In this document: one piece after another, positions 311 through 45,097 of the stretch
Position numbering within the stretch: the stretch's first letter is position 1
Layout: every line of letters starts with the position of its first letter
Assembly (NCBI GenBank): GCA_030390025.1
Contig: CM059431.1
Span: 121,274,001 to 121,338,000, forward strand
From: Squalus acanthias
Lineage: Eukaryota
DNA: 64,000 nucleotides
Direction: 5' to 3'
Translations under genes and position numbers: made by a program
Notes under the pieces: model-generated
What the model was told of the DNA's origin: nothing
The model's input: the letters and a program-made list of their open reading frames with translations, nothing else
The model's database searches: none

Positions 311-677
311 GTCCTCTACCCGCAGGGGGCCAGGAGTCCCTCCAGAGTGACTGCAGTGGGAGGAGATAGCTGAAGCGGTCAATGCCAGCAATCATGCCCC
401 CAGGAACTGGATCCAGTGCTGAAAGAAGTTTAATGACCTCACACAAGTAGTCAAGGTCAGTGAATACATCTTCAAATGTCATATCCCACCAACTGCACCA
501 CTAGCCTCACACACTGCTCAATGCACCACTCCCCCATCACTCACCTACTAACAATCTGTAGCAATCACGACTCATACCTCACAATCATAGCTTTACCTCA
601 CCCTCACACTCTTACCACTGCTGCAAGCCTCACACCCACATCTCACACCTTGCACACAATGCCAGCTATTCAACTAT

Positions 678-3600
678 GACAGGCACATCACCCAGACACA
701 TTGCACCACACGCACTGGCACACTTCACCCAAACACATTATATCACATTCACTGACACACTTTACCCAAACACATTGCACCACACTCACTGACACACATC
801 ACCCAAACACATTGCACCACACTCACTGACACACTTCACCCAAAAACATTGCACCACACTCACTGACACACTTCACCCAAACACATTGCACCACACTCAC
901 TGACACACTTCACCCAAACACATTGCACCACACTCACTGACACACTTCACCCAAACACATTGCAGCACACTCACTGACACACATCACCCAAACACATTGC
1001 ACCACACTCACTGACACACTTCACCCAAACACATTGCACCACACTCACTGACACACATCACCCAAACACATTGCACCACACTCACTGACACACATCACCC
1101 AAACACATTGCACCACACTCACTGACACACTTCACCCAAACACATTGCACCACACTCACTGACACACTTCACCCAAACACATTGCACCACACTCACTGAC
1201 ACACATCACCCAAACACATTGCACCACACTCACTGACACACTTCACCCAAACACATTGCACCACACTCACTGACACACATCACCCAAACACATTGCACCA
1301 CACTCACTGACACACTTCACCCAAACACATTGCTCCACACTCACTGACACACTTCACCCAAACACATTGCAGCACACTCACTGACACACTTCACCCAAAC
1401 ACATTGCACCACACTCACTGACACACTTCACCCAAACACACTGCTCCACACTCGCTGACACACTTCACCCAAACACATTGCACCACACTCACTGACACAC
1501 TTCACCCAAACATATTGCACCACACTCACTGACACGCTTCACCCAAAAACATTGCACCACACTCACTGACACACATCACCCAAACACATTGCACCACACT
1601 CACTGACACACTTCACCCAAAAACATTGCACCACACTCACTGACACACATCACCCAAACACATTGCTCCACACTCACTGATACACTTCACTCAAACACAT
1701 TGCACCACACTCACTGACACATTTCACCCAAAAACATTGCAGCACACTCACTGACACACATCACCCAAACACATTGCTCCACACTCACTGATACACATCA
1801 CCCAAACACATTGCACCACACTCACTGACACATTTCACCCAAAAACATTGCACCACACTCACTGACACACTTCACCCAAACACATTGCAGCACACTCACT
1901 GACACACATCACCCAAACACATTGCACCACACTCACTGACACAGATCACCCAAACACATTGCTCCACACTCACTGATACACATCACCCAAACACATTGCA
2001 CCACACTCACTGACACATTTCACCCAAACACATTGCACCACACTCACTGACACACATCACCCAAACACATTGCTCCACACTCACTGACACATTTCACCCA
2101 AAAGCATTGCTCCACACTCACTGACACATTTCACCCAAAAACATTGCATCACAGTCACTGACACACTTCACCCAAACACATTGCTCCACACTCACTGATA
2201 CACTTCACCCAAACACATTGCACCACACTCACTGACACACATCACCCAAACACATTGCACCACACTCACTGACACACTTCACCCAAACACACTGCTCCAC
2301 ACTCACTGACACACTTCACCCAAACACATTGCAGCACACTCACTGACACACATCACCCAAACACATTGCTCCACACTCACTGATACACTTCACCCAAACA
2401 CATTGCACCACACTCACTGACACACTTCACCCAAACACATTGCACCACACTCACTGACACACACATCACCCAAACACATTGCACCACACTCACTGACACA
2501 CTTCACCCAAACACATTGCACCACACTCACTAACACACACATCACCCAAACACATTGCTCCACACTCACTAACATACACATCACCCAAACACATTGATCC
2601 ACACTCACTAACACACACATCACCAAACACATTGCTCCAGACTCACTGACACACATCACCCACACACATTGCACCACACTCACTAACACACACATCACCC
2701 AAACACATTGCACCACACTCACTGACACATTTCACCCAAAAACATTGCAGCACACTCACTGACACACATCACCCAAACACATTGCTCCACACTCACTGAT
2801 ACACATCACCCAAACACATTGCACCACACTCACTGACACATTTCACCCAAAAACATTGCACCACACTCACTGACACACTTCACCCAAACACATTGCAGCA
2901 CACTCACTGACACACATCACCCAAACACATTGCACCACACTCACTGACACACATCACCCAAACACATTGCTCCACACTCACTGATACACATCACCCAAAA
3001 ACATTGCATCACAGTCACTGACACACTTCACCCAAACACATTGCACCACACTCACTGACACACATCACCCAAACACATTGCTCCACACTCACTGACACAT
3101 TTCACCCAAACACATTGCACCACACTCACTGACACACATCACCCAAACACATTGCTCCACACTCACTGACACATTTCACCCAAAAGCATTGCTCCACACT
3201 CACTGACACATTTCACCCAAAAACATTGCATCACAGTCACTGACACACTTCACCCAAACACATTGCTCCACACTCACTGATACACTTCACCCAAACACAT
3301 TGCACCACACTCACTGACACACACATCACCCAAACACATTGCAGCACACTCACTGACACACATCACCCAAACACATTGCTCCACACTCACTGATACACTT
3401 CACCCAAACACATTGCACCACACTCACTGACACACACATCACCCAAACACATTGCACCACACTCACTAACACACATCACCCAAACACATTGATCCACACT
3501 CACTAACACACACATCACCAAACACATTGCTCCAGACTCACTGACACACATCACCCACGCACATTGCACCAAACTCACTAACACACACATCACCCAAACA

Positions 3601-6600
3601 CATTGCACCACACTCACTAACACACACATCACCCACACACATTGCACCACACTCACTGACACACTTCACCCAAACACATTGCACCACACTCACTGACACA
3701 CATCACCCAAACACATTGCACCACACTCACTGACACACTTCACCCAAACACATTGCACCACACTCACTGACACACATCACCCAAACACATTGCACCACAC
3801 TCACTGACACACATCACCCAAACACATTGCACCACACTCACTGACACACTTCACCCAAACACATTGCACCACACTCACTGACACACTTCACCCAAACACA
3901 TTGCACCACACTCACTGACACATTTCACCCAAACACATTGCACTACACTCACTAACACACACATCACCCAAACACATTGCTCCACACTCACTGACACATT
4001 TCACCCAAACACATTGCACCACACTCACTGACACACATCACCCAAACACATTGCAGCACACTCACTGACACACATCACCCAAACACATTGCTCCACACTC
4101 ACTGATACACTTCACCCAAACACATTGCACCACACTCACTGACACACTTCACCCAAACACATTGCACCACACTCACTGACACACACATCACCCAAACACA
4201 TTGCACCACACTCACTGACACACTTCACCCAAACACATTGCACCACACTCACTAACACACACATCACCCAAACACATTGCTCCACACTCACTAACATACA
4301 CATCACCCAAACACATTGATCCACACTCACTAACACACACATCACCAAACACATTGCTCCAGACTCACTGACACACATCACCCACACACATTGCACCACA
4401 CTCACTAACACACACATCACCCAAACACATTGCACCACACTCACTGACACATTTCACCCAAAAACATTGCAGCACACTCACTGACACACATCACCCAAAC
4501 ACATTGCTCCACACTCACTGATACACATCACCCAAACACATTGCACCACACTCACTGACACATTTCACCCAAAAACATTGCACCACACTCACTGACACAC
4601 TTCACCCAAACACATTGCAGCACACTCACTGACACACATCACCCAAACACATTGCACCACACTCACTGACACACATCACCCAAACACATTGCTCCACACT
4701 CACTGATACACATCACCCAAAAACATTGCATCACAGTCACTGACACACTTCACCCAAACACATTGCACCACACTCACTGACACACATCACCCAAACACAT
4801 TGCTCCACACTCACTGACACATTTCACCCAAACACATTGCACCACACTCACTGACACACATCACCCAAACACATTGCTCCACACTCACTGACACATTTCA
4901 CCCAAAAGCATTGCTCCACACTCACTGACACATTTCACCCAAAAACATTGCATCACAGTCACTGACACACTTCACCCAAACACATTGCTCCACACTCACT
5001 GATACACTTCACCCAAACACATTGCACCACACTCACTGACACACACATCACCCAAACACATTGCAGCACACTCACTGACACACATCACCCAAACACATTG
5101 CTCCACACTCACTGATACACTTCACCCAAACACATTGCACCACACTCACTGACACACACATCACCCAAACACATTGCACCACACTCACTAACACACATCA
5201 CCCAAACACATTGATCCACACTCACTAACACACACATCACCAAACACATTGCTCCAGACTCACTGACACACATCACCCACGCACATTGCACCACACTCAC
5301 TAACACACACATCACCCAAACACATTGCACCACACTCACTAACACACACATCACCCACACACATTGCACCACACTCACTGACACACTTCACCCAAACACA
5401 TTGCACCACACTCACTGACACACATCACCCAAACACATTGCACCACACTCACTGACACACTTCACCCAAACACATTGCACCACACTCACTGACACACATC
5501 ACCCAAACACATTGCACCACACTCACTGACACACATCACCCAAACACATTGCACCACACTCACTGACACACTTCACCCAAACACATTGCACCACACTCAC
5601 TGACACACTTCACCCAAACACATTGCACCACACTCACTGACACATTTCACCCAAACACATTGCACTACACTCACTAACACACACATCACCCAAACACATT
5701 GCTCCACACTCACTGACACATTTCACCCAAACACATTGCACCACACTCACTGACACACATCACCCAAACACATTGCACCACACTCACTGACACATTTCAC
5801 CCAAAAGCATTGCTCCACACTCACTGACACATTTCACCCAAAAACATTGCATCACAGTCACTGACACACTTCACCCAAACACATTGCTCCACACTCACTG
5901 ATACACTTCACCCAAACACATTGCACCACACTCACTGACACACATCACCCAAACACATTGCACCACACTCACTGACACACTTCACCCAAACACACTGCTC
6001 CACACTCACTGACACACTTCACCCAAACACATTGCAGCACACTCACTGACACACATCACCCAAACACATTGCTCCACACTCACTGATACACTTCACCCAA
6101 ACACATTGCACCACACTCACTGACACACTTCACCCAAACACATTGCACCACACTCACTGACACACACATCACCCAAACACATTGCACCACACTCACTGAC
6201 ACACTTCACCCAAACACATTGCACCACACTCACTAACACACACATCACCCAAACACATTGCTCCACACTCACTGACACACACATCACCCAAACACACTGC
6301 ACCACACTCACTGACACACACATCACCCAAACACATTGCACCAAACTCACTAACACACACATCACCCAAACACACTGCACCACACTCACTAACATACACA
6401 TCACCCAAACACATTGATCCACACTCACTAACACACACATCACCAAACACATTGCTCCAGACTCACTGACACACATCACCCACGCACATTGCACCACACT
6501 CACTAACACACACATCACCCAAACACATTGCACCACACTCACTAACACACACATCACCCAAACACATTGCTCCACACTCACTGACACATTTCACCCAAAA

Positions 6601-9600
6601 GCATTGCTCCACACTCACTGACACATTTCACCCAAAAACATTACATCACAGTCACTGACACACTTCACCCAAACACATTGCTCCACACTCACTGATACAC
6701 TTCACCCAAACACATTGCACCACACTCACTGACACACACATCACCCAAACACATTGCAGCACACTCACTGACACACATCACCCAAACACATTGCTCCACA
6801 CTCACTGATACACTTCACCCAAACACATTGCACCACACTCACTGACACACTTCACCCAAACACATTGCACCACACTCACTGACACACACATCACCCAAAC
6901 ACATTGCACCACACTCACTGACACACTTCACCCAAACACATTGCACCACACTCACTAACACACATCACCCAAACACATTGATCCACACTCACTAACACAC
7001 ACATCACCAAACACATTGCTCCAGACTCACTGACACACATCACCCACGCACATTGCACCACACTCACTAACACACACATCACCCAAACACATTGCACCAC
7101 ACTCACTAACACACACATCACCCACACACATTGCACCACACTCACTGACACACTTCACCCAAACACATTGCACCACACTCACTGACACACATCACCCAAA
7201 CACATTGCACCACACTCACTGACACACTTCACCCAAACACATTGCACCACACTCACTGACACACATCACCCAAACACATTGCACCACACTCACTGACACA
7301 CATCACCCAAACACATTGCACCACACTCACTGACACACTTCACCCAAACACATTGCACCACACTCACTGACACACTTCACCCAAACACATTGCACCACAC
7401 TCACTGACACATTTCACCCAAACACATTGCACTACACTCACTAACACACACATCACCCAAACACATTGCTCCACACTCACTGACACATTTCACCCAAACA
7501 CATTGCACCACACTCACTGACACACATCACCCAAACACATTGCTCCACACTCACTGACACATTTCACCCAAAAGCATTGCTCCACACTCACTGACACATT
7601 TCACCCAAAAACATTGCATCACAGTCACTGACACACTTCACCCAAACACATTGCTCCACACTCACTGATACACTTCACCCAAACACATTGCACCACACTC
7701 ACTGACACACATCACCCAAACACATTGCACCACACTCACTGACACACTTCACCCAAACACACTGCTCCACACTCACTGACACACTTCACCCAAACACATT
7801 GCAGCACACTCACTGACACACATCACCCAAACACATTGCTCCACACTCACTGACACACTTCACCCAAACACATTGCACCACACTCACTGACACACACATC
7901 ACCCAAACACATTGCACCACACTCACTGACACACTTCACCCAAACACATTGCACCACACTCACTAACACACACATCACCCAAACACATTGCTCCACACTC
8001 ACTAACATACACATCACCCAAACACATTGATCCACACTCACTAACACACACATCACCAAACACATTGCTCCAGACTCACTGACACACATCACCCACGCAC
8101 ATTGCACCACACTCACTAACACACACATCACCCAAACACATTGCACCACACTCACTAACACACACATCACCCACACACATTGCACCACACTCACTGACAC
8201 ACATCACCCAAACACATTGCACCACACTCACTGACACACTTCACCCAAACACATTGCACCACACTCACTGACACACATCACCCAAACACATTGCACCACA
8301 CTCACTGACACACATCACCCAAACACATTCCACCACACTCACTGACACACTTCACCCAAACACATTGCACCACACTCACTGACACACTTCACCCAAACAC
8401 ATTGCACCACACTCACTGACACATTTCACCCAAACACATTGCACCACACTCACTAACACACACATCACCCAAACACATTGCTCCACACTCACTAACATAC
8501 ACATCACCCAAACATATTGATCCACACTCACTAACACACACATCACCCAAACACATTGCTCCACACTCACTGACACACATCATCCACACACATTGCACGA
8601 CACTCACTGACACACATCACCCAAACACATTGCACCACACTCACTGACACACTTCACCCAAACACACTGCTCCACACTCACTGACACACTTCACCCAAAC
8701 ACATTGCTCCACACTCACTGATACACTTCACCCAAACACATTGCACCACACTCACTGACACACTTCACCCAAACACATTGCACCACACTCACTGACACAC
8801 ACATCACCCAAACACATTGCACCACACTCACTGACACACTTCACCCAAACACATTGCACCACACTCACTAACACACACATCACCCAAACACATTGCTCCA
8901 CACTCACTGACACACACATCACCCAAACACACTGCACCACACTCACTGACACACACATCACCCAAACACATTGCACCAAACTCACTAACACACACATCAC
9001 CCAAACACACTGCACCACACTCACTAACATACACATCACCCAAACACATTGATCCACACTCACTAACACACACATCACCAAACACATTGCTCCAGACTCA
9101 CTGACAGACATCACCCACGCACATTGCACCACACTCACTAACACACACATCACCCAAACACATTGCACCACACTCACTAACACACACATCACCCAAACAC
9201 ATTGCTCCACACTCACTGACACATTTCACCCAAAAGCATTGCTCCACACTCACTGACACATTTCACCCAAAAACATTACATCACAGTCACTGACACACTT
9301 CACCCAAACACATTGCTCCACACTCACTGATACACTTCACCCAAACACATTGCACCACACTCACTGACACACACATCACCCAAACACATTGCAGCACACT
9401 CACTGACACACATCACCCAAACACATTGCTCCACACTCACTGATACACTTCACCCAAACACATTGCACCACACTCACTGACACACTTCACCCAAACACAT
9501 TGCACCACACTCACTGACACACACATCACCCAAACACATTGCACCACACTCACTGACACACTTCACCCAAACACATTGCACCACACTCACTAACACACAT

Positions 9601-12600
9601 CACCCAAACACATTGATCCACACTCACTAACACACACATCACCAAACACATTGCTCCAGACTCACTGACACACATCACCCACGCACATTGCACCACACTC
9701 AATAACACACACATCACCCAAACACATTGCACCACACTCACTAACACACACATCACCCACACACATTGCACCACACTCACTGACACACTTCACCCAAACA
9801 CATTGCACCACACTCACTGACACACATCACCCAAACACATTGCACCACACTCACTGACACACTTCACCCAAACACATTGCACCACACTCACTGACACACA
9901 TCACCCAAACACATTGCACCACACTCACTGACACACATCACCCAAACACATTGCAACACACTCACTGACACACTTCACCCAAACACATTGCACCACACTC
10001 ACTGACACACTTCACCCAAACACATTGCACCACACTCACTGACACATTTCACCCAAACACATTGCACTACACTCACTAACACACACATCACCCAAACACA
10101 TTGCTCCACACTCACTGACACATTTCACCCAAACACATTGCACCACACTCACTGACACACATCACCCAAACACATTGCTCCACACTCACTGACACATTTC
10201 ACCCAAAAGCATTGCTCCACACTCACTGACACATTTCACCCAAAAACATTGCATCACAGTCACTGACACACTTCACCCAAACACATTGCTCCACACTCAC
10301 TGATACACTTCACCCAAACACATTGCACCACACTCACTGACACACATCACCCAAACACATTGCACCACACTCACTGACACACTTCACCCAAACACACTGC
10401 TCCACACTCACTGACACACTTCACCCAAACACATTGCAGCACACTCACTGACACACATCACCCAAACACATTGCTCCACACTCACTGACACACTTCACCC
10501 AAACACATTGCACCACACTCACTGACACACACATCACCCAAACACATTGCACCACACTCACTGACACACTTCACCCAAACACATTGCACCACACTCACTA
10601 ACACACACATCACCCAAACACATTGCTCCACACTCACTAACATACACATCACCCAAACACATTGATCCACACTCACTAACACACACATCACCAAACACAT
10701 TGCTCCAGACTCACTGACACACATCACCCACGCACATTGCACCACACTCACTAACACACACATCACCCAAACACATTGCACCACACTCACTAACACACAC
10801 ATCACCCACACACATTGCACCACACTCACTGACACACATCACCCAAACACATTGCACCACACTCACTGACACACTTCACCCAAAACACATTGCACCACAC
10901 TCACTGACACACATCACCCAAACACATTGCACCACACTCACTGACACACATCACCCAAACACATTGCACCACACTCACTGACACACTTCACCCAAACACA
11001 TTGCACCACACTCACTGACACACTTCACCCAAACACATTGCACCACACTCACTGACACATTTCACCCAAACACATTGCACCACACTCACTAACACACACA
11101 TCACCCAAACACATTGCTCCACACTCACTAACATACACATCACCCAAACATATTGATCCACACTCACTAACACACACATCACCCAAACACATTGCTCCAC
11201 ACTCACTGACACACATCATCCACACACATTGCACGACACTCACTGACACACATCACCCAAACACATTGCACCACACTCACTGACACACTTCACCCAAACA
11301 CACTGCTCCACACTCACTGACACACTTCACCCAAACACATTGCTCCACACTCACTGATACACTTCACCCAAACACATTGCACCACACTCACTGACACACT
11401 TCACCCAAACACATTGCACCACACTCACTGACACACACATCACCCAAACACATTGCACCACACTCACTGACACACTTCACCCAAACACATTGCACCACAC
11501 TCACTAACACACACATCACCCAAACACATTGCTCCACACTCACTGACACACACATCACCCAAACACACTGCACCACACTCACTGACACACACATCACCCA
11601 AACACATTGCACCAAACTCACTAACACACACATCACCCAAACACACTGCACCACACTCACTAACATACACATCACCCAAACACATTGATCCACACTCACT
11701 AACACACACATCACCAAACACATTGCTCCAGACTCACTGACACACATCACCCACGCACATTGCACCACACTCACTAACACACACATCACCCAAACACATT
11801 GCACCACACTCACTAACACACACATCACCCAAACACATTGCTCCACACTCACTGACACATTTCACCCAAAAGCATTGCTCCACACTCACTGACACATTTC
11901 ACCCAAAAACATTACATCACAGTCACTGACACACTTCACCCAAACACATTGCTCCACACTCACTGATACACTTCACCCAAACACATTGCACCACACTCAC
12001 TGACACACACATCACCCAAACACATTGCAGCACACTCACTGACACACATCACCCAAACACATTGCTCCACACTCACTGATACACTTCACCCAAACACATT
12101 GCACCACACTCACTGACACACTTCACCCAAACACATTGCACCACACTCACTGACACACACATCACCCAAACACATTGCACCACACTCACTGACACACTTC
12201 ACCCAAACACATTGCACCACACTCACTAACACACATCACCCAAACACATTGATCCACACTCACTAACACACACATCACCAAACACATTGCTCCAGACTCA
12301 CTGACACACATCACCCACGCACATTGCACCACACTCACTAACACACACATCACCCAAACACATTGCACCACACTCACTAACACACACATCACCCACACAC
12401 ATTGCACCACACTCACTGACACACTTCACCCAAACACATTGCACCACACTCACTGACACACATCACCCAAACACATTGCACCACACTCACTGACACACTT
12501 CACCCAAACACATTGCACCACACTCACTGACACACATCACCCAAACACATTGCACCACACTCACTGACACACATCACCCAAACACATTGCACCACACTCA

Positions 12601-15600
12601 CTGACACACTTCACCCAAACACATTGCACCACACTCACTGACACACTTCACCCAAACACATTGCACCACACTCACTGACACATTTCACCCAAACACATTG
12701 CACTACACTCACTAACACACACATCACCCAAACACATTGCTCCACACTCACTGACACATTTCACCCAAACACATTGCACCACACTCACTGACACACATCA
12801 CCCAAACACATTGCTCCACACTCACTGACACATTTCACCCAAAAGCATTGCTCCACACTCACTGACACATTTCACCCAAAAACATTGCATCACAGTCACT
12901 GACACACTTCACCCAAACACATTGCTCCACACTCACTGATACACTTCACCCAAACACATTGCACCACACTCACTGACACACATCACCCAAACACATTGCA
13001 CCACACTCACTGACACACTTCACCCAAACACACTGCTCCACACTCACTGACACACTTCACCCAAACACATTGCAGCACACTCACTGACACACATCACCCA
13101 AACACATTGCTCCACACTCACTGACACACTTCACCCAAACACATTGCACCACACTCACTGACACACACATCACCCAAACACATTGCACCACACTCACTGA
13201 CACACTTCACCCAAACACATTGCACCACACTCACTAACACACACATCACCCAAACACATTGCTCCACACTCACTAACATACACATCACCCAAACACATTG
13301 ATCCACACTCACTAACACACACATCACCAAACACATTGCTCCAGACTCACTGACACACATCACCCACGCACATTGCACCACACTCACTAACACACACATC
13401 ACCCAAACACATTGCACCACACTCACTAACACACACATCACCCACACACATTGCACCACACTCACTGACACACATCACCCAAACACATTGCACCACACTC
13501 ACTGACACACTTCACCCAAACACATTGCACCACACTCACTGACACACATCACCCAAACACATTGCACCACACTCACTGACACACATCACCCAAACACATT
13601 GCACCACACTCACTGACACACTTCACCCAAACACATTGCACCACACTCACTGACACACTTCACCCAAACACATTGCACCACACTCACTGACACATTTCAC
13701 CCAAACACATTGCACCACACTCACTAACACACACATCACCCAAACACATTGCTCCACACTCACTAACATACACATCACCCAAACATATTGATCCACACTC
13801 ACTAACACACACATCACCCAAACACATTGCTCCACACTCACTGACACACATCATCCACACACATTGCACGACACTCACTGACACACATCACCCAAACACA
13901 TTGCACCACACTCACTGACACACTTCACCCAAACACACTGCTCCACACTCACTGACACACTTCACCCAAACACATTGCAGCACACTCACTGACACACATC
14001 ACCCAAACACATTGCTCCACACTCACTGATACACTTCACCCAAACACATTGCACCACACTCACTGACACACTTCACCCAAACACATTGCACCACACTCAC
14101 TGACACACACATCACCCAAACACATTACACCACACTCACTGACACACTTCACCCAAACACATTGCACCACACTCACTAACACACACATCACCCAAACACA
14201 TTGCTCCACACTCACTGACACACACATCACCCAAACACACTGCACCACACTCACTGACACACACATCACCCAAACACATTGCACCACACTCACTAACACA
14301 CACATCACCCAAACACACTGCACCACACTCACTAACATACACATCACCCAAACACATTGATCCACACTCACTAACACACACATCACCAAACACATTGCTC
14401 CAGACTCACTGACACACATCACCCACGCACATTGCACCACACTCACTAACACACACATCACCCAAACACATTGCACCACACTCACTAACACACACATCAC
14501 CCAAACACATTGCTCCACACTCACTGACACATTTCACCCAAAAGCATTGCTCCACACTCACTGACACATTTCACCCAAAAACATTGCATCACAGTCACTG
14601 ACACACTTCACCCAAACACATTGCTCCACACTCACTGATACACTTCACCCAAACACATTGCACCACACTCACTGACACACACTTCACCCAAACACATTGC
14701 AGCACACTCACTGACACACATCACCCAAACACATTGCTCCACACTCACTGATACACTTCACCCAAACACATTGCACCACACTCACTGACACACTTCACCC
14801 AAACACATTGCACCACACTCACTGACACACACATCACCCAAACACATTGCACCACACTCACTGACACACTTCACCCAAACACATTGCACCACACTCACTA
14901 ACACACATCACCCAAACACATTGATCCACACTCACTAACACACACATCACCAAACACATTGCTCCAGACTCACTGACACACATCACCCACGCACATTGCA
15001 CCACACTCACTAACACACACATCACCCAAACACATTGCACCACACTCACTAACACACACATCACCCACACACATTGCACCACACTCACTGACACACTTCA
15101 CCCAAACACATTGCACCACACTCACTGACACACATCACCCAAACACATTGCACCACACTCACTGACACACTTCACCCAAACACATTGCACCACACTCACT
15201 GACACACATCACCCAAACACATTGCACCACACTCACTGACACACATCACCCAAACACATTGCACCACACTCACTGACACACTTCACCCAAACACATTGCA
15301 CCACACTCACTGACACACTTCACCCAAACACATTGCACCACACTCACTGACACATTTCACCCAAACACATTGCACTACACTCACTAACACACACATCACC
15401 CAAACACATTGCACCACACTCACTGACACACTTCACCCAAACACATTGCACCACACTCACTGACACATTTCACCCAAACACATTGCACTACACTCACTGA
15501 CACACATCACCCAAACACATTGCACCACACTCACTGACACATTTCACCCAAACACATTGCACCACACTCACTGACACACATCACCCAAACACATTGCTCC

Positions 15601-18600
15601 ACACTCACTGACACATTTCACCCAAAAGCATTGCTCCACACTCACTGACACATTTCACCCAAAAACATTGCATCACAGTCACTGACACACTTCACCCAAA
15701 CACATTGCTCCACACTCACTGATACACTTCACCCAAACACATTGCACCACACTCACTGACACACATCACCCAAACACATTGCACCACACTCACTGACACA
15801 CTTCACCCAAACACACTGCTCCACACTCACTGACACACTTCACCCAAACACATTGCAGCACACTCACTGACACACATCACCCAAACACATTGCTCCACAC
15901 TCACTGACACACTTCACCCAAACACATTGCACCACACTCACTGACACACACATCACCCAAACACATTGCACCACACTCACTGACACACTTCACCCAAACA
16001 CATTGCACCACACTCACTAACACACACATCACCCAAACACATTGCTCCACACTCACTAACATACACATCACCAAACACATTGCTCCAGACTCACTGACAC
16101 ACATCACCCACGCACATTGCACCACACTCACTAACACACACATCACCCAAACACATTGCACCACACTCACTAACACACACATCACCCACACACATTGCAC
16201 CACACTCACTGACACACATCACCCAAACACATTGCACCACACTCACTGACACACTTCACCCAAACACATTGCACCACACTCACTGACACACATCACCCAA
16301 ACACATTGCACCACACTCACTGACACACATCACCCAAACACATTGCACCACACTCACTGACACACTTCACCCAAACACATTGCACCACACTCACTGACAC
16401 ACTTCACCCAAACACATTGCACCACACTCACTGACACATTTCACCCAAACACATTGCACCACACTCACTAACACACACATCACCCAAACAGATTGCTCCA
16501 CACTCACTAACATACACGGTGGCATAGTGGTTAGCACTGGTGCCTCACAGCGCCAGAGACCCGGGTTCGAATCTGACCTCGGGTGACTGTCTGTGTGGAG
16601 TTTGCACATTCTCCCCGTGTCTGTGTGGGTTTCCTCCGGGTGCTCCGGTTTCCTCCCACAGTCCAAAAATGTGTGGGTTAGGTTGATTTGGCTATGATAA
16701 ATTGACCCTTAGTGTTAGGGGGGATTAAATATGTGGGGTTATGGGGATAGGATGGGATATGTTAGGGGGGAATTAAATACGTGGGGTTACGGGGGTAGGA
16801 TGGGATATGTGTACTGTGGGGATTAAAGCAGGGACAGGGTACTGGATTTGGATGATCAGCCATGATCGTATTGAATGGCGGAGCAGGCTCGACGGGCCGA
16901 ATGGCCTACTCCTGCTCCTAGATTCTATGTTTCTATGTTTCTATGTTTTACACATCACCCAAACATATTGATCCACACTCACTAACACACACATCACCCA
17001 AACACATTGCTCCACACTCACTGACACACATCATCCACACACATTGCACGACACTCACTGACACACATCACCCAAACACATTGCACCACACTCACTGACA
17101 CACTTCACCCAAACACACTGCTCCACACTCACTGACACACTTCACCCAAACACATTGCTCCACACTCACTGACACACATCATCCACACACATTGCACGAC
17201 ACTCACTGACACACATCACCCAAACACATTGCACCACACTCACTGACACACTTCACCCAAACACACTGCTCCACACTCACTGACACACTTCACCCAAACA
17301 CATTGCAGCACACTCACTGACACACATCACCCAAACACATTGCTCCACACTCACTGATACACTTCACCCAAACACATTGCACCACACTCACTGACACACT
17401 TCACCCAAACACACTGCTCCACACTCACTGACACACTTCACCCAAACACATTGCAGCACACTCACTGACACACATCACCCAAACACATTGCTCCACACTC
17501 ACTGACACACTTCACCCAAACACATTGCACCACACTCACTGACACACACATCACCCAAACACATTGCACCACACTCACTGACACAATTCACCCAAACACA
17601 TTGCACCACACTCACTAACACACACATCACCCAAACACATTGCTCCACACTCACTAACATACACATCACCCAAACACATTGATCCACACTCACTAACACA
17701 CACATCACCAAACACATTGCTCCAGACTCACTGACACACATCACCCACGCACATTGCACCACACTCACTAACACACACATCACCCAAACACATTGCACCA
17801 CACTCACTAACACACACATCACCCACACACATTGCACCACACTCACTGACACACATCACCCAAACACATTGCACCACACTCACTGACACACTTCACCCAA
17901 ACACATTGCACCACACTCACTGACACACATCACCCAAACACATTGCACCACACTCACTGACACACATCACCCAAACACATTGCACCACACTCACTGACAC
18001 ACTTCACCCAAACACATTGCACCACACTCACTGACACACTTCACCCAAACACATTGCACCACACTCACTGACACATTTCACCCAAACACATTGCACCACA
18101 CTCACTAACACACACATCACCCAAACACATAGCTCCACACTCACTAACATACACATCACCCAAACATATTGCTCCACACTCACTGACACACATCATCCAC
18201 ACACATTGCACGACACTCACTGACACACATCACCCAAACACATTGCACCACACTCACTGACACACACATCACCCAAACACATTGCTCCACACTCACTGAC
18301 ACACATCATCCACACACATTGCACGACACTCACTGACACACATCACCCAAACACATTGCACCACACTCACTGACACACTTCACCCAAACACACTGCTCCA
18401 CACTCACTGACACACTTCACCCAAACACATTGCAGCACACTCACTGACACACTTCACCCAAACACATTGCACCACACTCACTAACATACACATCACCCAA
18501 ACACATTGATCCACACTCACTAACACACACATCACCAAACACATTGCTCCAGACTCACTGACACACATCACCCACGCACATTGCACCACACTCACTAACA

Positions 18601-21600
18601 CACACATCACCCAAACACATTGCACCACACTCACTAACACACACATCACCCAAACACATTGCTCCACACTCACTGACACATTTCACCCAAAAGCATTGCT
18701 CCACACTCACTGACACATTTCACCCAAAAACATTGCATCACAGTCACTGACACACTTCACCCAAACACATTGCTCCACACTCACTGATACACTTCACCCA
18801 AACACATTGCACCACACTCACTAACACACACATCACCCAAACACATTGCTCCACACTCACTGACACACACATCACCCAAACACACTGCACCACACTCACT
18901 GACACACACATCACCCAAACACATTGCACCACACTCACTAACACACACATCACCCAAACACATTGCAGCACACTCACTGACACACATCACCCAAACACAT
19001 TGCTCCACACTCACTGATACACTTCACCCAAACACATTGCACCACACTCACTGACACACTTCACCCAAACACATTGCACCACACTCACTGACACACACAT
19101 CACCCAAACACATTGCACCACACTCACTGACACACTTCACCCAAACACATTGCACCACACTCACTAACACACACATCACCCAAACACATTGCTCCACACT
19201 CACTGACACACACATCACCCAAACACACTGCACCACACTCACTGACACACACATCACCCAAACACATTGCACCACACTCACTAACACACACATCACCCAA
19301 ACACACTGCACCACACTCACTAACATACACATCACCCAAACACATTGATCCACACTCACTAACACACACATCACCAAACACATTGCTCCAGACTCACTGA
19401 CACACATCACCCACGCACATTGCACCACACTCACTAACACACACATCACCCAAACACATTGCACCACACTCACTAACACACACATCACCCAAACACATTG
19501 CTCCACACTCACTGACACATTTCACCCAAAAGCATTGCTCCACACTCACTGACACATTTCACCCAAAAACATTGCATCACAGTCACTGACACACTTCACC
19601 CAAACACATTGCTCCACACTCACTGATACACTTCACCCAAACACATTGCACCACACTCACTGACACACACATCACCCAAACACATTGCAGTACACTCACT
19701 GACACACATCACCCAAACACATTGCTCCACACTCACTGATACACTTCACCCAAACACATTGCACCACACTCACTGACACACTTCACCCAAACACATTGCA
19801 CCACACTCACTGACACACACATCACCCAAACACATTGCACCACACTCACTGACACACTTCACCCAAACACATTGCACCACACTCACTAACACACATCACC
19901 CAAACACATTGATCCACACTCACTAACACACACATCACCAAACACATTGCTCCAGACTCACTGACACACATCACCCACGCACATTGCACCACACTCACTA
20001 ACACACACATCACCCAAACACATTGCACCACACTCACTAACACACACATCACCCACACACATTGCACCACACTCACTGACACACTTCACCCAAACACATT
20101 GCACCACACTCACTGACACACATCACCCAAACACATTGCACCACACTCACTGACACACTTCACCCAAACACATTGCACCACACTCACTGACACACATCAC
20201 CCAAACACATTGCACCACACTCACTGACACACATCACCCAAACACATTGCACCACACTCACTGACACACTTCACCCAAACACATTGCACCACACTCACTG
20301 ACACACTTCACCCAAACACATTGCACCACACTCACTGACACATTTCACCCAAACACATTGCACTACACTCACTAACACACACATCACCCAAACACATTGC
20401 TCCACACTCACTGATACACTTCACCCAAACACATTGCACCACACTCACTGACACACATCACCCAAACACATTGCACCACACTCACTGACACACTTCACCC
20501 AAACACACTGCTCCACACTCACTGACACACTTCACCCAAACACATTGCAGCACACTCACTGACACACATCACCCAAACACATTGCTCCACACTCACTGAT
20601 ACACTTCACCCAAACACATTGCACCACACTCACTGACACACTTCACCCAAACACATTGCACCACACTCACTGACACACACATCACCCAAACACATTGCAC
20701 CACACTCACTGACACACTTCACCCAAACACATTGCACCACACTCACTAACACACACATCACCCAAACACATTGCTCCACACTCACTAACATACACATCAC
20801 CCAAACACATTGATCCACACTCACTAACACACACATCACCAAACACATTGCTCCAGACTCACTGACACACATCACCCACGCACATTGCACCACACTCACT
20901 AACACACACATCACCCAAACACATTGCACCACACTCACTGACACACTTCACCCAAACACACTGCTCCACACTCACTGACACATTTCACCCAAACACATTG
21001 CACCACACTCACTGACACACTTCACCCAAACACATTGCACCACACTCACTGACACACATCACCCAAACACATTGCACCACACTCACTGACACACTTCACC
21101 CAAACACATTGCACCACACTCACTGACACACATCACCCAAACACATTGCACCACACTCACTGACACACATCACCCAAACACATTGCACCACACTCACTGA
21201 CACACTTCACCCAAACACATTGCACCACACTCACTGACACACTTCACCCAAACACATTGCACCACACTCACTGACACATTTCACCCAAACACATTGCACC
21301 ACACTCACTAACACACACATCACCCAAACACATTGCTCCACACTCACTAACATACACATCACCCAAACACATTGATCCACACTCACTAACACACACATCA
21401 CCCAAACACATTGCTCCACACTCACTGACACACATCATCCACACACATTGCACGACACTCACTGACAGACACATCACCCAAACACATTGCACCACACTCA
21501 CTGACACACACATCACCCAAACACATTGCACCACACTCACTGACACACTTCACCCAAACACATTGCACCACACTCACTGACACACATCACCCAAACACAT

Positions 21601-21736
21601 TGCACCACACTCACTGACACACATCACCCAAACACATTGCACCACACTCACTGACACACATCACCCAAACACATTGCTCCACACTCACTGACACACTTCA
21701 CCCAAACACATTGCTCCACACTCACTGACACACTTC
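678..21736. repeat. About 21-kb minisatellite, 37-bp unit CACATTGCACCACACTCACTGACACAC(A/T)TCACCCAAA with 38/39-bp variants; roughly 550 units by length/unit estimate
   Basis: Directly visible tandem array with strong C/A strand bias. All Val/Cys-rich minus-strand ORFs here are translations of the repeat. Confidence 0.99.
16518..16948 (+). mobile_element. tRNA-derived V-SINE (HE1-like) inserted in the minisatellite
   Basis: A box GGTGGCATAGTGG, B box GGTTCGAATC, V-domain TGTGTGGAGTTTGCACATTCTCCCCGTG...GGTTTCCTCCCACAGTCCAAA, CR1-type tail GGGCCGAATGGCCTACTCCTGCTCC(TTCTATGT)n. Flanking TACAC direct repeats at 16513-16517 and 16949-16953. Confidence 0.93.
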
Positions 21737-23281
21737 TCTTTCTCTTGCAGGGCAAGGTGGCACATAACAGGTGCCAGCAGCAGCTAACCGGCGGGGTGAC
21801 AGGCACGGCTGCATATCCTGACCCAGCTGGAGGAGAGAGAGCTAAACATTGTTGGAGGGACCACCACTGAGGCCGTGGTGATCAGCGAGTCTGAAAACAT
21901 TGATGATGATTGTGTGCTCATACCTAATCTGCTTCTCACATCCCACTTCCCCCTCATCCCACAATCTCTCCTCACTTACAAGCTACTGATGGTGTAAGCA
22001 TGCACATCTTGTTTCCCCCCCACCTCTCCTCATCACAACCATACCCTTGTGCCTTTCTCCTTTCAGATACCCAAGAACTTCAAGCTTCAAGCCAGTGCAG
22101 GAAGAAGAGGAGAATGATGGAGAAGAAGAGACACAGTTACATGATCTGACACTCCCAGGCACCAGCTCAGAAACTGGCACTGCGCGTACTTTTGAGGGTA
22201 GTATAGAGGCAGATCTGCACGTGGTGAGTCACCGGGCATGAGTGGGCTGCAGCAAGGGCAGAGGGAAAGGGTAGCGTAGGTGCCAGCTCCCCGAAGGGCG
22301 AGGCCACACACGAGTTCTGCTGCAGAGAACTCAGATGAGGACTTTGATGGGGCGGCCTTCAGAAGAAGGGTGATGGGCATGCACACAGAAATGCTTGGTG
22401 CAGTGGCAGGCCTGCCAGAGAGCCTGTTGTCACTGTCAAGGAGCATGGAGGAGTCCAGCTCCAACCTTGCACAGTGCTTTGCAAAGAGCTTGGAGCCCAT
22501 GATTTCCAGGAAGGAAGTGATAGCAACTCCATTAGCACACTTGTGGACCCATCCATGATGCAACGTCTGATGGGCGATGTCGCGGCTTCCACTACAGCAC
22601 AAGCGAAAGCGACCCAAAGTCTGAGTGCTGCAGTGGAAGCTCAGACTGCTGTTATGAAAGCTCAGCTTGCTGCCATCGTGGCTGCATTTACCAGTGTGGA
22701 AAGGGGCTTGCAGAGTGTCACAGCTGTCCAGCAATCTGTCCTCCAACAGATGGCTAGGAATGCTGAGGCACCGCCCCGGGGGAGTTGCAGTGGGTCAGTG
22801 GAGCACGAACCTGCTGTCCTCTCTCAGGATGACAGCATTTGTACTTCCACCACTGCCACTCCACCAGTGCCCTTGCTGTTGCCTGTCAGCCAGCCAGCCC
22901 AGACTGCTGCCGCCAATGCCAAGGTGGTGCAGTCTACAGCCGGGCCTTCTAGGCCCAGAGCTGCTCAAGGTCATCCTGCAAGGCCATCTGCAGTCTCGCC
23001 CACTGAAACTCAGCAGCCTTCCACCAGCCATGCTGCAGCCACTGGGGTAGCACAACATAGGCGCACTAGGACAAGCAAAGGCACATGGAAGACAGGCACT
23101 AAGGGAATGCACAAGGGCGATTAGTTGACTTTGTTGTGGAGTTTTGCAATGAATCATTTAAAAATGATGTTTGTTTTGTGGTGGCTTTCATTTCAGCTTT
23201 GTGGCCAAGAGGATGCTGTGATGTTCCGTGACAGAGTAATGTTAAGGTGGGGAAGTTTTGAGCAACAGGGATCTGGAGTTT

Positions 23282-24621
23282 CATTGAGGGGAAGCGGAGT
23301 CTAATGTTGCGTTAATGGACAGCCCGTCTGGAACATGGATCTGCTGCCTACCTCCTCCTCTTCCTCCTCCTCTTCCTCCTCTTCCTCCTCCTCCTCCTAC
23401 TAAGCTGGTCACAGAACCCATGGTGGCAAGGGCTGCGCCTCATGATGGCAAAATTGTGGAGCATGTAGCAGACCAACATGAATTGGGACACCCACTCCGG
23501 CGATTACTGCAGGGCTCCTCCCGAGCGGTCAAGGCAGTGGAACTGTTGTTTCAGTACCTCGATGGTCTGCTCGATGACGTTCCTCGTGGTTGCATGACTC
23601 TCATTATATGACTGCTGGCCACGAGTGGTGGGGTCATGGAGGGGTGTCATTAGCCAGGTATAGAGCGGATAGTCCTTGTCACCTAACAGCTACCCTCAGG
23701 TTCAATGTGGTGGCTGGAAGATTGCTGGCACAGTGGACTGGCGCAGGATGAAGGCATCATGACTGCTGCCAGGATACTGGGCATTCACCGTCATGATGTG
23801 TTAGGCGTGATCACACCCAACTGCACAATAAGTGAGTGGTAACCTTTGCAGTTACTGAAGATCTCACCATTAAGATGCAGTGCCCACAAAGCCATGTTTT
23901 TTTTAATTTGTTTTTTTTATGGGGATGTGGGCGTCGCTGGTAAGGCCAGCATTTATTGCCCATCCCTAATTGCCCTTGAGAAGGTGTTGGTGAGCCGCCT
24001 GCTTGAACTGCTGCAGTCCGTGTGGCGAATGTACTCCCACAGTGCTGTTAGGTGGCGAGTTCCAGGATTTTAATCCAGCGACGTGTGTGCCGTCGATGGC
24101 GCCCTGCACCACGGGGAAGCCCGATATCCTGGCAAAGCCACGTGCATGCTTCTCCTGCTTCTCTCTAATTGAAGAGAAGGCAATGAAGTCCCCTCTCCTA
24201 AAGTATAGAGCCTCTGTGGCCTCCTGGATGCAGCGATGGATGGCGAACTGCAAAATGTTTGCTACGTCAGCTGTTCCAGCCTTGAAGGATCCTCTGGCAA
24301 AAAAATTCAGGTCCACGGTCCCCTTGAGGGGCACTGGCAGAGCTGTTGTCGCCCTGCTCTGAGGCTGCAGGTCTGGTTCCAAGAAGTGGCAGAGTTCTGT
24401 GACCACCTCCTGGTGAAGCGGAGCCACCGAACACACTGCTCCTGGCTTAGTTGCAGGTAGGAGAAGTGCTCCCTGAAGACCCTAGGTGGTTAAGGCCTCC
24501 TGCTAAGAGCCCTCCTCCTCCTCCTCCTCCTCCTCCCTCTGCGAGCAGCTTGTCTTTGCTGCCTTTGCTCCATCTCCCTGTCACGCTGCAGCGTGAAGGG
24601 TACTGCAACTAGAGCCTCCAA
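23282..24621 (-). pseudogene. Degenerate Harbinger DDE transposase, convergent with the dead Myb gene
   Basis: ORF 23966-24436 (EVVTELCHFLEPDLQPQSRA...GFARISGFPVVQGAIDGTHVA) aligns with the intact transposase. Frameshifts, stops and an insertion at about 23897-24078. Confidence 0.93.
23897..24078. mobile_element. Interspersed retroposon-like fragment interrupting the dead transposase; same family at about 61950-62240
   Basis: T-rich edge then GGGATGTGGGCGTCGCTGG...CATCCCTAATTGCCCTTGAGAAGGTG, repeated near 61950. Breaks the THVAL motif. Confidence 0.7.
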
Positions 24622-26249: not shown

Positions 26250-28233
26250 CACTCTTCCTTAACTCCAGGTGGATTCCCCGCTCAGGCCTGAGTTAAAATT
26301 ACAGTCGGGTCTCAATGATGGGCTCAGAGTGCGGGATTGGAGGCGGGTCCGCTGTCAAACCCGCCTCCTTGTCAGTTTCCCAAGTGTCGGGTCTGTCATC
26401 CCTGAACAGACCCGACACCAAGCGGTGGGTCAGCCAATTTAGATAATTAAAAGCTTATTAAAAGGTAGTTAAGAAACATTTCCCCATGTACTTACCATTT
26501 TAGCAGGTTTTCAATGAGGATCCCGGAGAGTGGCTATCATGTCAGGTAAGTATGTCGGGTTCTCAATGACTGTGGATTGCTGTGAATAGGTGAAAGCTGC
26601 AAAAGTGGTCTAAAACCTACCAGTTCACAGCTGTTCACTTCCCAATCTTAGAAGCTGGAGTATTAATGATTGGAACCCACTTTTGAGCTGTATGAACTTT
26701 TGAAGTGTTTGCAGTAATCTCTCTATCCACTGTCACCTCCTTGGAACAACCTATCTCACCATTGACAGATCGATTTTGTCATCTTATCCTCACCTGCCAT
26801 CTATTACATCAGCATCGGTGCCCTTGAAAATATTTCACCTTGGTCCTCAGAATCCCACCACGATCAGCCCCAACACCAACATCACCAGGCACAGCAGCAT
26901 CACCAATAACAACACCAATTTGCTCCGTAATCACCTGATGCTGCACAAGACACAGGATGTCAGCACCTGACCACATTGCTGCCCAGGAGGCCAGGGATTT
27001 ACTTCACTTGACACTGTACACCCTGGCTGCCACATGATGCGCCAGGTTGGCACCACCCCATACCAACACCATAAAGCATCCCTACAATGCCCAAGCCATT
27101 CCTTTCACACACATCACCATTGCGGGAGTTAACATTATGTCTCACCATTCACTGCAACTCACGAAGCCACTTCCAAAGATGCACACAAATCTGTCCAAGA
27201 ACGGAAAGTGTTGAAAATAAAGGTTTCAATGTTTGGCAGCACATCAACAGAAACTTTACATGAATATTGGCGAAAACACCCAAGTGCCTACCCTTGTGTG
27301 TTGTTAGTTGGTATGATTGGACAAGAGTGAGATTGAGTGTGTGGGGTGGCTAGGGAGATGTGGATGTGATAATGTAGATAGAGAGGGATGGGTGGAAGTA
27401 CAAGGTAAGTTGGTGTGAGTAAGGATGTGCAGGATTAGGGTAGGGAAGGCAGAGTGATGGGGATGTGATGAGTGGCTCAGCAGGATGAGGCTGAGTGTGA
27501 CTTTGCAGTAATGTTTTGTGATCTACTGAGATCATGGAAAGGTTTGCGCCACTGCAGCCTGGTCCTCCTGATGACGTCCCTGCTTGTGCCCTCCTGTGCA
27601 ATGTGCAACCAGGCTGCGTTGGTGTCCTGGGGAGGTCTCTTCCGTCCATTGGAAGGGAAGGGAACCTCCCTGCGCGCTGTGACTCCCTCCATAATCATAT
27701 GGAGGGAGTCATGGGAGAGCCTGGATGCAGCCGTGCACCTTTGTGCAGTGCTCGTCAGTATTTGCAGCACCTCAATGCTGTAGAACACTGACAGCACAAA
27801 TGTCAAAATGATTGTGGACATGGTCCCTTTAAGGAAACCGGGGGATGACGCCTCATCAAATGATGTCATCAGACCCGCTTCCTTTTAATTGGCCGAGAAC
27901 CTCGCAGGATGGGCTTAACAAGTCCAATCAATGGAAAATTCTTGTCACAGAGTGGGATGGAGCCGGGAGCAGGGTCACAACCCACCACCTACCTCGGCCA
28001 CACTGAGCCTGCCTCGGTAGGAGAAATCGCGGCCGATGTCATCGGGCCGCAACATGCATATGTAACGAAGGACCCTGTTGGCTCCGGCGCTTGTCCTTGC
28101 TGCCTGCTCAGGAGAGCAAGTTAAAATTGCAGATTTTGCAATCAGGGTGGCTTTCGGACAGGTAAAAGCCAGGCCGATTTTAACTGCCCACCCGCCAGGT
28201 TTCTGCTGAGCGAGTAGGGTTAAAATCACCCCC
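26250..28233 (-). mobile_element. Non-autonomous Harbinger deletion derivative, copy 1 (left boundary approximate)
   Basis: Decayed Myb exon (SLHMIMEGVTARREVPFP...WLHIAQE...LQWRKPFHDLSRS), colinear with 44574-46655 and 57561-59076. Right end TAAAATCACCCCC. Confidence 0.8.
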
Positions 28234-29729: not shown

Positions 29730-30481
29730 GGCCCGTAATTTCCGATAGGAGGCTTCCTGCGTGCGGAGGCCTGCTATCAGGAAAAAATCTATGCCCTTAC
29801 CTGAGGGCTCCCGAGGTCCGGACTTTTCTGCTCCTGGGCCTCTCCTGGTGTGCGCACGCAGAGGCCCGGTAATCCCAGGGGCGCAAGTGGTTCGCAAGCG
29901 TCCCTGGGATCACGTGGGCCAGGTGAGCCAATGGGAGAAGGGAATCCCCCTTCATACTTAAGACCTGTCAAAAGTATGAATGGGGATCACTGAAAAAATA
30001 CATCAAAACATTAAATAAATTTTAAAAAACCATCACATTTTTAAAATGAGTTAAAATTACATTAAATTAAATATTTTAAACAAAACTTTAATTTTTTGAA
30101 AAAATAATTAAAGTTTTTTACAGGGCTGAAAATAAACTTACCTTTTTTAAAAGTATTTTTAAATTATAAATGAGTGAAAAATAATTTTTTTTTTTACTTT
30201 TTTAAACTCTTATGCTGGTAAAAGCAAGCCTTACGCAGGCTTTTACCAGGCGTAAGATTTTTAAATGTTTTCAGCGGGCAAGGTTGTGCAGAAAGCGGAA
30301 CTCTCCACCCGCAGAGGCCCTTCTCCAGAGCAGGCGGAGGATCTGGCAAGAGGATTTTTGACAGATCGGAAGTGCCGGTTTTCAGCGCATGCGCTTCGCA
30401 TGCCTGAAGCCGGCACTTGCGAGCTCCCTACGGGTGTGTACACAGCTCGTACACACCCGTAGGGATCGGAAAATACAGGCC
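29730..30481. mobile_element. About 750-bp Harbinger-type MITE related to the host MITE 38228-43210 (opposite orientation)
   Basis: Ends GGCCCGTAATTTCC / GGAAAATACAGGCC, AT-rich core, shared block CCCTGGGATCACGTGGGCCA..GAGCCAATGG. TSD not clean. Confidence 0.75.
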
Positions 30482-32164
30482 AGTGTTTATTTCACACTGC
30501 CTTTGGATTCCAGTACTCCACCTATTCAGACATTCCAAGAGCTGCAACTCATCTGCCACCTACGGGTGTTCGTCAAGGGATCTGTAATTTCCCTAAATAG
30601 GAGCAATGGATATACTCCTGGTCTCCATTCAGCATCAGGGCAGACATACAGTACAGACCAGCCTAGGTATCTGAGATGATTACAACCTGATGAACCCACT
30701 CTGTAGAGAGCCATTGCCAAAAAACAGCTGGTGAAGAAGAAAACTTGCCTCAGTCAGTGGCAAAAGAGGTCCTAGACTTCAATTACCTTGAGTGAGTCTG
30801 TGAACATGCAGCATGCAGGTACCTTATGTTGACTGTGTGCATAGGCCACAGGGAAAACAGATTGACGTGTTGGCAAGACAGCAAAACAGAATGAAGTTCT
30901 AAAACAACAGCCATCCCTGTGCAGTCATAAAATAGCTGAATAGTTGCTATCGAGCTGTGTATTCTCCTTTAGTACTGCGCCGCCAGGGATACAGTGAAGT
31001 GTTGTTACATCAACAATGTGCTTGAGCAAACTTAACAGGAGATTGTGGATTCTTCTCCCCAGATGGATGCAGAGGACAATTTCTCCTTGCCTATGTATTC
31101 CTTGCCCCGGATGATTCCTCAGTGCCCTCCAAAATGAAAATGGCCTCTGCAATGGATGGGGCTGATAGTTGATAAACTATTGCGTGAAGTAAACGGGATC
31201 CACAGTGAACCTGAACACATTTACAATATGGTCCTAAATAGGCCAAAGATTCCACTGAACTTTCTTACAATGGCAACAACGATGAAACTGCAACTTAAAT
31301 TGTTTGTGGGAAAAGGCATAATTTGTAAAAATTCTAACTGAAGAAAGCAGGTAACATGGTTTTGTCTCTGCATATAATGCTGACAACAGATATATGAATT
31401 AATGGAAATAAATACTTTGAAATGTTTGGAAATTTGAATGACCTTTCAGTAAATTGCTAATGGGAACTTTTGTTTAAATTCTGCAAACCCTTCGGACAAT
31501 ACAAAAGAGAACTTGCTGTTTTCAGTACTTCACTATGGTCTAATGCAAATCATGAGGGTGAGTGTCAACCCATTTACTATACCATCAGCGTCATGAGTCT
31601 CCAAATTTGTGAATCCCTAGTAATTATTTGGATCAATTAATTTTCAGTATAATCTCATTTACACACTGTTACATGATGCATGGCATTAATCCACTAACAA
31701 TGAACAGACATGCTGCAGCAAATTAAACCAATGGGGTTCCCATCAAACCTCTCCGAAGATTGGTGTCAGCTTGCAGGTCAATTCTCAGTTTAACCATGGG
31801 TTATACATTTTAGACAGAAAACTAGTGCATAGTCCAAAGCTTAGAAAAATAAAGGGTAGTCGAGCTAAGATTATCTACTAGCTTTCTGTGCAAAAAAGAC
31901 TTGAACCTAATCAAGAACTGATCTGTTGAAACACTGTTAGATTAAGCAACAGAAATTGACGTTCCATACATCATGATTTTTGGACGGACATGGGGCATAA
32001 TGGAGCAGACGAATAGGTAGAGAACAGTACTGGCATAGCTCCACCCATTTTCCACCTGATATGCATTTCCACTTAAGTTTTCAACAGGGGATAAAATATC
32101 CCACGAGAAATGCACAGGAGCTTCGAGAAAATATTATAGCATAACAGAGATCACATTACTTTAT

Positions 32165-38700: not shown

Positions 38701-38855
38701 CTGTGGGGCTGGGGGGGGGCGCTATTTAAAGGGGGCCTCTTCCTGTCTTTTTCTGTGGTTGACATTTTTGCACCACTCGTTCTGAGAGAGAGAGAGAGAT
38801 TCGGAGAGAAAGAAAGAGAGACTTCTGCATTGAGTCAACGCTTTGTGAAGTAGTT

Positions 38856-40085: not shown

Positions 40086-40397
40086 GGCCCCTGCTGTGGA
40101 AATGGCTTCTGCCATTGCTAACAACATCAATGAACCCAGCACGCAACCCCTAAGCCGGCCAAGGCACCAATGATTCCAAACACCAAACATGTATATTTTT
40201 AATACAAAAACTTATTTATTTTACAAACTCTGTGTGTTTCATTTCCTCATGACAAACTCATAGAAATAAACACAAAAAAACAGTCATTAACATAACTGGT
40301 TCTCACAACCTGGAGATAATGTCCAAAACACTAGACAAAAGTTGGACCACGAACCTCGGCCTTTAATAAAAAAATGACCAGCATTTTGTCACACATC

Positions 40398-44860: not shown

Positions 44861-44898
44861 TCACAAGCTTTCGGAACTATCGCTCCTTCCTCAGGTGA
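44861..44898 (-). ncRNA. Putative minimal type I hammerhead ribozyme, inverted twin
   Basis: Exact reverse complement of 45060-45097. Confidence 0.65.
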
Positions 44899-45059
44899 AG
44901 TAAATTGGATACAGAATCGTCAGAGCATATATAGATGGAAAAAAAAAGCATGTGTACTTTACAATTGCAGACCAATAAATTATTGGTCTGCAATTGTAAA
45001 GTACACATGCTTTTTTTTTCCATCTATATATGCTCTGACGATTCTGTATCCAATTTACT

Positions 45060-45097
45060 TCACCTGAGGAAGGAGCGATAGTTCCGAAAGCTTGTGA
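45060..45097 (+). ncRNA. Putative minimal type I hammerhead ribozyme
   Basis: Stem I TCAC/GTGA, core CTGAGGA, stem II GGAGC-GATA-GTTCC, GAAA, palindromic AGCT in place of stem III. Confidence 0.65.

Follow-up and report, generated by a model that had tools for sequence, protein, structure and literature searches.

The window analysed here, a 64-kb stretch of the Squalus acanthias genome, contains a minisatellite of 549 units that fills intron 1 of a pseudogenised Myb gene, which belongs to a Harbinger DNA transposon. We consider it probable that the repeat unit is the branch-point segment of this same intron, that the segment was likely duplicated in the ancestry of the transposon family, and that the array likely expanded in place by unequal exchange after the gene had decayed.

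The intron runs from GT to AG between positions 456 and 21750 of the plus strand, giving a length of 21,295 bp in the assembly. Its donor side at 456 reads GTCAGT, and the acceptor side, ending with the AG at 21749-21750, consists of a pyrimidine tract followed by CAG. A sequence-only reading of the window had placed the whole array between these two sites, and its coordinates and arithmetic hold. The same reading took the flanks of the array to be exons 1 and 2 of a Myb gene, which is borne out by protein alignments with the corresponding gene of a second Harbinger element in the window. When frameshifts are allowed for, the segment 311-455 shares 21 of 48 residues with residues 29-79 of the reference Myb protein, the segment 21754-21907 shares 21 of 51 residues with its exon 2, and intron 1 interrupts the same codon in both Harbinger copies. 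The exon 1 stretches of both elements match the Pfam family Myb_DNA-bind_5 (PF13873; Myb/SANT-like second gene) above its cut-off, at 357-455 in the array-bearing copy. The exon 1 remnant (311-455, plus strand, codons ~29-79) carries one frameshift and two stops and is cut at ~311 by another repeat. This repeat (111-303) abuts the exon, runs towards the start of the window and is 76% alike to 47321-47140.

Both genes of the array-bearing element, Myb and transposase, are dead. Four frameshifts and at least three stops were counted in the Myb gene by frameshift-aware alignment to the protein of the second element, with three of the frameshifts and at least one of the stops in the remnants of exon 2, intron 2 and exon 3 (21751-23125, plus strand). 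The broken transposase (23355-24531, minus strand) has three frameshifts, seven stops and a foreign insert of ~180 bp (23896-24076), bringing the two genes together to seven frameshifts and at least ten stops. The left end of the element lies off the window or is interrupted, and no match to the arm of the second element was found beyond 24502. As the host Myb gene is a pseudogene, the array is not a giant working intron, and this interpretation was rejected on the strength of the four frameshifts and at least three stops.

Tandem Repeats Finder (TRF) describes a single array at 684-21733, with a period of 37, 89% matches and a score of 30523. Parsing yields 549 units arranged head-to-tail on the plus strand, 548 of them whole and one split by a SINE, and these fall into 58 distinct strings. 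Most units are 37 bp long (388), followed by lengths of 39 bp (137) and 38 bp (22), and one terminal unit measures 34 bp; the mean substitution from one common unit is 4.6%. A branch-point-like motif CTRAC (CTGAC or CTAAC) occurs 509 times, and CTGAT another 38 times. The array (20.6 kb) contains 84 AG and 17 GT dinucleotides, and for none of the array AGs tested do the 12 nt upstream include nine or more pyrimidines.

Superimposed on the basic period is a higher-order structure, with two copies of a 46-unit block (1,722 bp) and about four of a 70-unit block (2,635-2,672 bp). The 70-unit repeat (6376-18467, plus strand) comprises three near-identical copies, blocks 0-2, and a fourth that is rearranged and contains the SINE. 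Blocks 0-2 start at 6376, 9011 and 11647 and are 3-5 substitutions apart in 2.63 kb, while the fourth block (start 14319) differs from them by 11-14 substitutions plus rearrangements. The identity of the duplicated 46-unit and 70-unit blocks is 99.5-99.9%. Private substitutions are present in every 70-unit block, and block 2 has an extra unit. The most divergent units are the leftmost ones, which grade into a motif upstream of the array, and 7 of the 24 singleton units are located within 702-1923.

The SINE is a tRNA-type element of 431 bp (16518-16948, plus strand) with an A- and B-box-like head and a TTCTATGT tail. It splits one array unit, is flanked by a target duplication of 4-5 bp (TACAC at 16513-16517 and 16949-16953) and is present in the fourth 70-unit block only, which suggests that it inserted after that block was last copied. 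Its 3' end is 83.5% identical to the 3' end of a LINE at 35928-35850, and a 48-bp tandem duplication of its own (2.4 copies, 86%) lies at 16713-16827. An Rfam search with the SINE returned nothing meaningful, with one chance match at an E value of 0.88. It may belong to HE1, the shark and ray V-SINE that is tabulated in PMC3747384.

The second Harbinger element (38228-43210, minus strand) has open frames for both genes, a Myb protein of 458 amino acids in three predicted exons and a transposase of 360 amino acids counted from its Met. Its transposase frame (39003-40082) matches PF13359, a DDE_Tnp_4-type transposase family, with 133 bits. The element is bounded by imperfect 12-bp terminal inverted repeats (10 of the 12 terminal bases match) and a 3-bp target duplication, and it sits inside a LINE endonuclease frame; it is a candidate young autonomous copy. 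A protein search with its Myb domain gave one match, at 49%, to an uncharacterised protein of the ray Narcine bancroftii, and no match of similar length.

Intron 1 of this element (42033-41697, GT to AG) is 337 bp long, as the sequence-only reading had reported, and we recomputed the ratio of 21,295 to 337 bp as 63.19. The further claim, that one 337-bp intron had grown 63-fold, is not supported. The two elements are 69-75% identical in their aligned coding DNA, with 170 of 371 Myb residues and 206 of 328 transposase residues in common, and the cousin's intron 1 contains a different repeat, 3.1 copies of a 54-bp unit (41727-41893, minus strand, 98% matches by TRF). Judged by these comparisons, the reference is a distant cousin from a different subfamily, neither sibling nor ancestor, and its role as true ancestor was rejected. 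As the reference is a cousin with a different repeat of its own at an overlapping position, the 63-fold ratio is not a measure between ancestor and descendant. The SINE, the higher-order blocks, the decay of the host gene and this 54-bp repeat had all escaped the sequence-only reading.

The two introns point to the origin of the 37-bp unit. A 51-bp motif (651-701, plus strand), upstream of and overlapping the start of the array, is homologous to the cousin's 54-bp unit, and the alignment of 631-690 with 41913-41855 of the cousin reaches 78% (E = 4.5e-5). At the opposite end, the terminal unit passes into what would be the original 3' splice region (21712-21750, plus strand), where CTGAC stands 22 nt before the end, followed by the pyrimidine tract and CAG. 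The unit is bounded by two 6-bp near-repeats, a left seed CACATC at 684-689 and a right seed CACTTC at 21731 that leads directly into the pyrimidine tract. These seeds differ by one base, a likeness that could also recur by mutation; among 547 units the seed reads CACATC in 300, CACTTC in 182 and CATTTC in 58. After removal of the extra units in silico, introns of 285 and 229 bp are obtained that are colinear. Their last 100 nt align over 67 of 99 positions with a score of 74, compared to 4 ± 7 (maximum 27.5) for 1000 shuffles, and in a separate local-alignment test, 74 compares to 40 ± 6 (maximum 63.5) for 500 shuffles. The comparison supports the view that the unit is native to the Myb intron 1 position of the Harbinger family, and the general consensus suggests that its motif is the branch point. 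Since the collapsed introns are colinear and yet carry different repeats, it follows that each subfamily duplicated a segment of its own at the same intron end, and that the two segments overlap without being identical. Each of the cousin's 54-bp units contains an AG and a donor-like GTAAG, which weakens a general argument that such units are splice-neutral.

For comparison with sibling copies, 21 contig-set runs from six organisms were listed, and four of these were compared: X5 and X18 from organism A, X8 from organism B and X16 from organism E. Contigs were placed on 21645-22450 at 80% likeness; X18 is only guessed to be RNA. The contigs are too short for unit counts per sibling, and the figures given here are among the matches listed, with another 2,279 loose ends as well as 59,740 pieces beyond them. 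Loose ends before 21657 were found in all four runs, in at least 112, 127, 149 and 7 contigs among those listed at the top, and read by eye they agree with window positions 654-683 in 27, 28, 26 and 27 of 30 letters. The presence of these ends in all four runs implies that many loci in three species have the upstream motif and the unit connected in register. Among the matches listed for X5, X8 and X16, the DNA-type runs, there are joints that go back 39 and 76 bases, which implies that tandem copies exist in other species, and a 39-bp AC variant of the unit is present in four of four runs. In X18, the alignment of one contig starts exactly at 21694 and continues through exon 2, preceded by 28 unaligned letters, which would fit a sibling with one unit. 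Siblings lacking the unit at this intron position would have spoken for an array inserted from elsewhere, but they carry it there in the same register. The sequence-only view of a minisatellite grown within a Harbinger Myb intron is thus upheld as to the intron position to which the unit appears native and corrected as to its birthplace: a unit that other family members and species already carry in tandem did not originate here. We infer that the Harbinger family has carried and spread the 37-bp repeat as a tandem repeat of variable number.

In the DNA-type runs, contig depth on exon 2 (21780-21914) is ~0.5-6 thousand, up to ~100-fold below the peak over intron 2 (21932-22076). Between 208 and 301 contigs have a different sequence before 21932, and at 80% likeness exon 2 is less widely shared than the introns. 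Single-base indels at 21797 and 22210-22211 are peculiar to the array-bearing copy relative to the sibling contigs.

Timing can be approached by setting the divergence of the element against that of its blocks. At 23 places within 21737-22450 (714 bp), at least 85% of the X5 depth differs from the array-bearing copy among the 40 of 336 rows listed, which amounts to at least 3.2%, a figure that mixes subfamily difference with decay. The higher-order block copies are only 0.1-0.5% apart. With the element at least 3% from its siblings, this suggests that the array probably underwent its large expansion once the copy had inserted and decayed, and the large duplications are likely much younger than the separation of the element from its siblings. 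The order of events would begin in the ancestry of the transposon family with a first duplication of the branch-point segment between the near-repeats CACATC and CACTTC. The tandem unit would then have been carried and spread by the Harbinger family, and the array-bearing copy would have inserted here and lost both of its genes to decay. With the host gene dead, there would be no selection on intron length, and recent unequal recombination could have duplicated the 46-unit and 70-unit blocks and brought the array to 21 kb in place, before the SINE inserted.

Growth in place has to be weighed against an import of unit blocks by gene conversion or break repair, the donor being a second long array of this family and the few resident units serving as homology. 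In its favour, copies of the unit and of its main variants abound throughout the genome and in other species, and in the three DNA-type runs the contig depth summed over the unit bin reaches 7-14 times that of the intron-2 peak, a weak hint that does not represent a copy number. We nevertheless regard such ectopic exchange as unlikely, since the blocks are locally nested (the 46-unit pair, the 70-unit series and sub-blocks reused) and the gradation of the divergent leftmost units into the upstream motif likewise fits growth in cis. The length of the array, or its number of blocks, could also be an artefact of assembly, if higher-order copies were over-expanded or collapsed. Identity among blocks 0-2 is 99.8-99.9%, with exact matches over 800 bp, and the length is that of the assembly; however, the private substitutions of each block, the extra unit in block 2 and the SINE with its target duplication in a single block speak for true copies, and we hold an error of this kind to be quite improbable. 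That the whole array is an artefact was rejected, as it is flanked by consecutive, similarly decayed exons of one element and no N is present anywhere in the 64-kb window.

It is also conceivable that the element moved with an already long array, or that the gene once worked and had its long intron spliced. In favour of this, the two splice sites are canonical, a branch-point-like motif is retained 22 nt from the AG, only 17 GT occur in the array, and the AGs tested there have no pyrimidine-rich run before them. Against this stand the frameshifts and stops of the Myb gene, an exon 1 cut by a repeat and a broken transposase, and the blocks are far younger than the divergence of the element from its siblings. 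We therefore find both possibilities highly improbable and retain expansion in place, after decay, of a unit inherited from the family.

A broader reading, which we offer tentatively and think has a modest chance of being correct, is that in these shark Harbingers repeats arise recurrently at the 3' end of Myb intron 1, which would act as a cradle for them. The 37-bp and 54-bp repeats would then have arisen independently, splicing would hide the units so that active copies scatter them, and thousands of such seeds could swell to satellites in dead copies. Only two subfamilies have been seen, and the 54-bp unit with its AG and GTAAG is not obviously splice-neutral, both of which count against this proposal. 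If it were true, a single transposon intron would be a major source of tandem DNA in elasmobranch genomes, and a datable one.

Several other features of the window were recorded. Three copies of another Harbinger-like family, 83-87% alike, lie at 26722-28039, 44569-46207 and 57558-59070, each with a decayed Myb exon 1 (at 27.5, 45.4 and 58.6 kb) followed by a C/A-rich stretch; TRF detected no tandem repeat at these three exon-1 fragments. A near-perfect palindrome of 343 bp (44808-45150, 99%) is associated with the copy near 45 kb. The short non-autonomous element at 29745-30483 has both arms in common with the cousin Harbinger (29872-30223 with 43068-42707, 74%; 30363-30459 with 38346-38250, 78%). 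The segment 25846-26124 is pyrimidine-rich on the plus strand between acceptor-like and donor-like motifs and K/E-rich with stops on the minus strand, and it is possibly a host exon or pseudo-exon. A Pfam search of 16 other ORFs in 32-61 kb gave no matches, although several read by eye as LINE fragments, and with the ORFs of 32-61 kb examined no host gene around the element was established. Non-vertebrate metagenome contigs returned 622 matches to a transposase pattern, none of which was confirmed, and these collections are uninformative for a shark element. Likewise, an exact 26-nt unit pattern was found in neither metagenome nor viral contigs, blanks without meaning in non-vertebrate collections.

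Giant introns filled with satellites are known in working genes, for example in the fertility genes of the Drosophila Y chromosome, from which the shark array differs in that its host gene is not intact. Because satellites that arose within transposons are well documented, the array does not define a new class and is a clear example of an already known process. No report of this Harbinger repeat was found in the literature searched, which lay mostly outside subscription papers and Repbase and consisted in part of titles and the starts of abstracts. In the text available, the word "tandem" does not occur in the fish Harbinger survey PMC9179366, nor "Harbinger" in the reviews PMC6947457, PMC12628747 and PMC9659126. 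The value of the locus is that of a clean worked case, with the founding segment, two seed repeats, a cousin's independent repeat, higher-order blocks and a dating SINE in one window. The family would also offer many replicate loci for measuring what makes short internal repeats run to tens of kilobases.

For fish PIF/Harbinger elements, a DDE transposase, a Myb-like second gene, a 3-bp target duplication and terminal repeats of 25-50 bp have been described (PMC9179366). The cousin shares the first three of these features but has terminal repeats of only 12 bp, which are imperfect. According to the same survey, the elephant shark lacks Harbingers, and an examination of other cartilaginous fish was proposed (PMC9179366).

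Internal tandem repeats ranging from one unit to satellite-sized arrays are reported for miDNA4, Xstir and Helentrons (PMC12628747, PMC9659126). In miDNA4, a Tc1/mariner MITE of Xenopus tropicalis studied by Scalvenzi and Pollet, the internal satellite consists of one monomer or of an array of variable length, the unit is flanked by short direct repeats of 5 bp or more, long arrays arise as the element ends decay, and the proposed source of the unit is the capture of a repeat that already existed (PMC12628747, PMC9659126). The shark array resembles it as a DNA transposon with an internal unit of variable number and short flanking direct repeats, but its host is a two-gene Harbinger and its unit is the intron's own segment, with a non-repeated homolog in the cousin. 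The central repeats of Helitrons and Helentrons (oyster; Drosophila DINE-TR1) form dispersed arrays of variable length that are occasionally satellite-sized (PMC12628747, PMC7492417). These are likewise borne by a family, dispersed and variable in length, as in the shark Harbinger, but belong to rolling-circle elements with a non-coding centre and no intron.

A further parallel is offered by the model of Haber and Louis (1998), in which a first duplication takes place between flanking repeats of 5-10 bp and is followed by slippage, conversion or unequal crossing-over (PMC6947457). Transposon-derived minisatellites of this kind include those of Alu, B1, MaLR Ms6-hm and Gmr9/Ogre, all cases being retroelements or MITEs, and minisatellites are given as having ~100 units (PMC6947457). 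The shark array agrees with the model in its head-to-tail order, its founding unit between 6-bp repeats and its position inside a transposon. The unit also lies at the same place in siblings in variable number, with junction contigs in four of four runs, tandem joints in three of four and one contig that fits a single unit. It differs from the earlier cases in its 549 units, well above ~100, its higher-order blocks and its Harbinger host.
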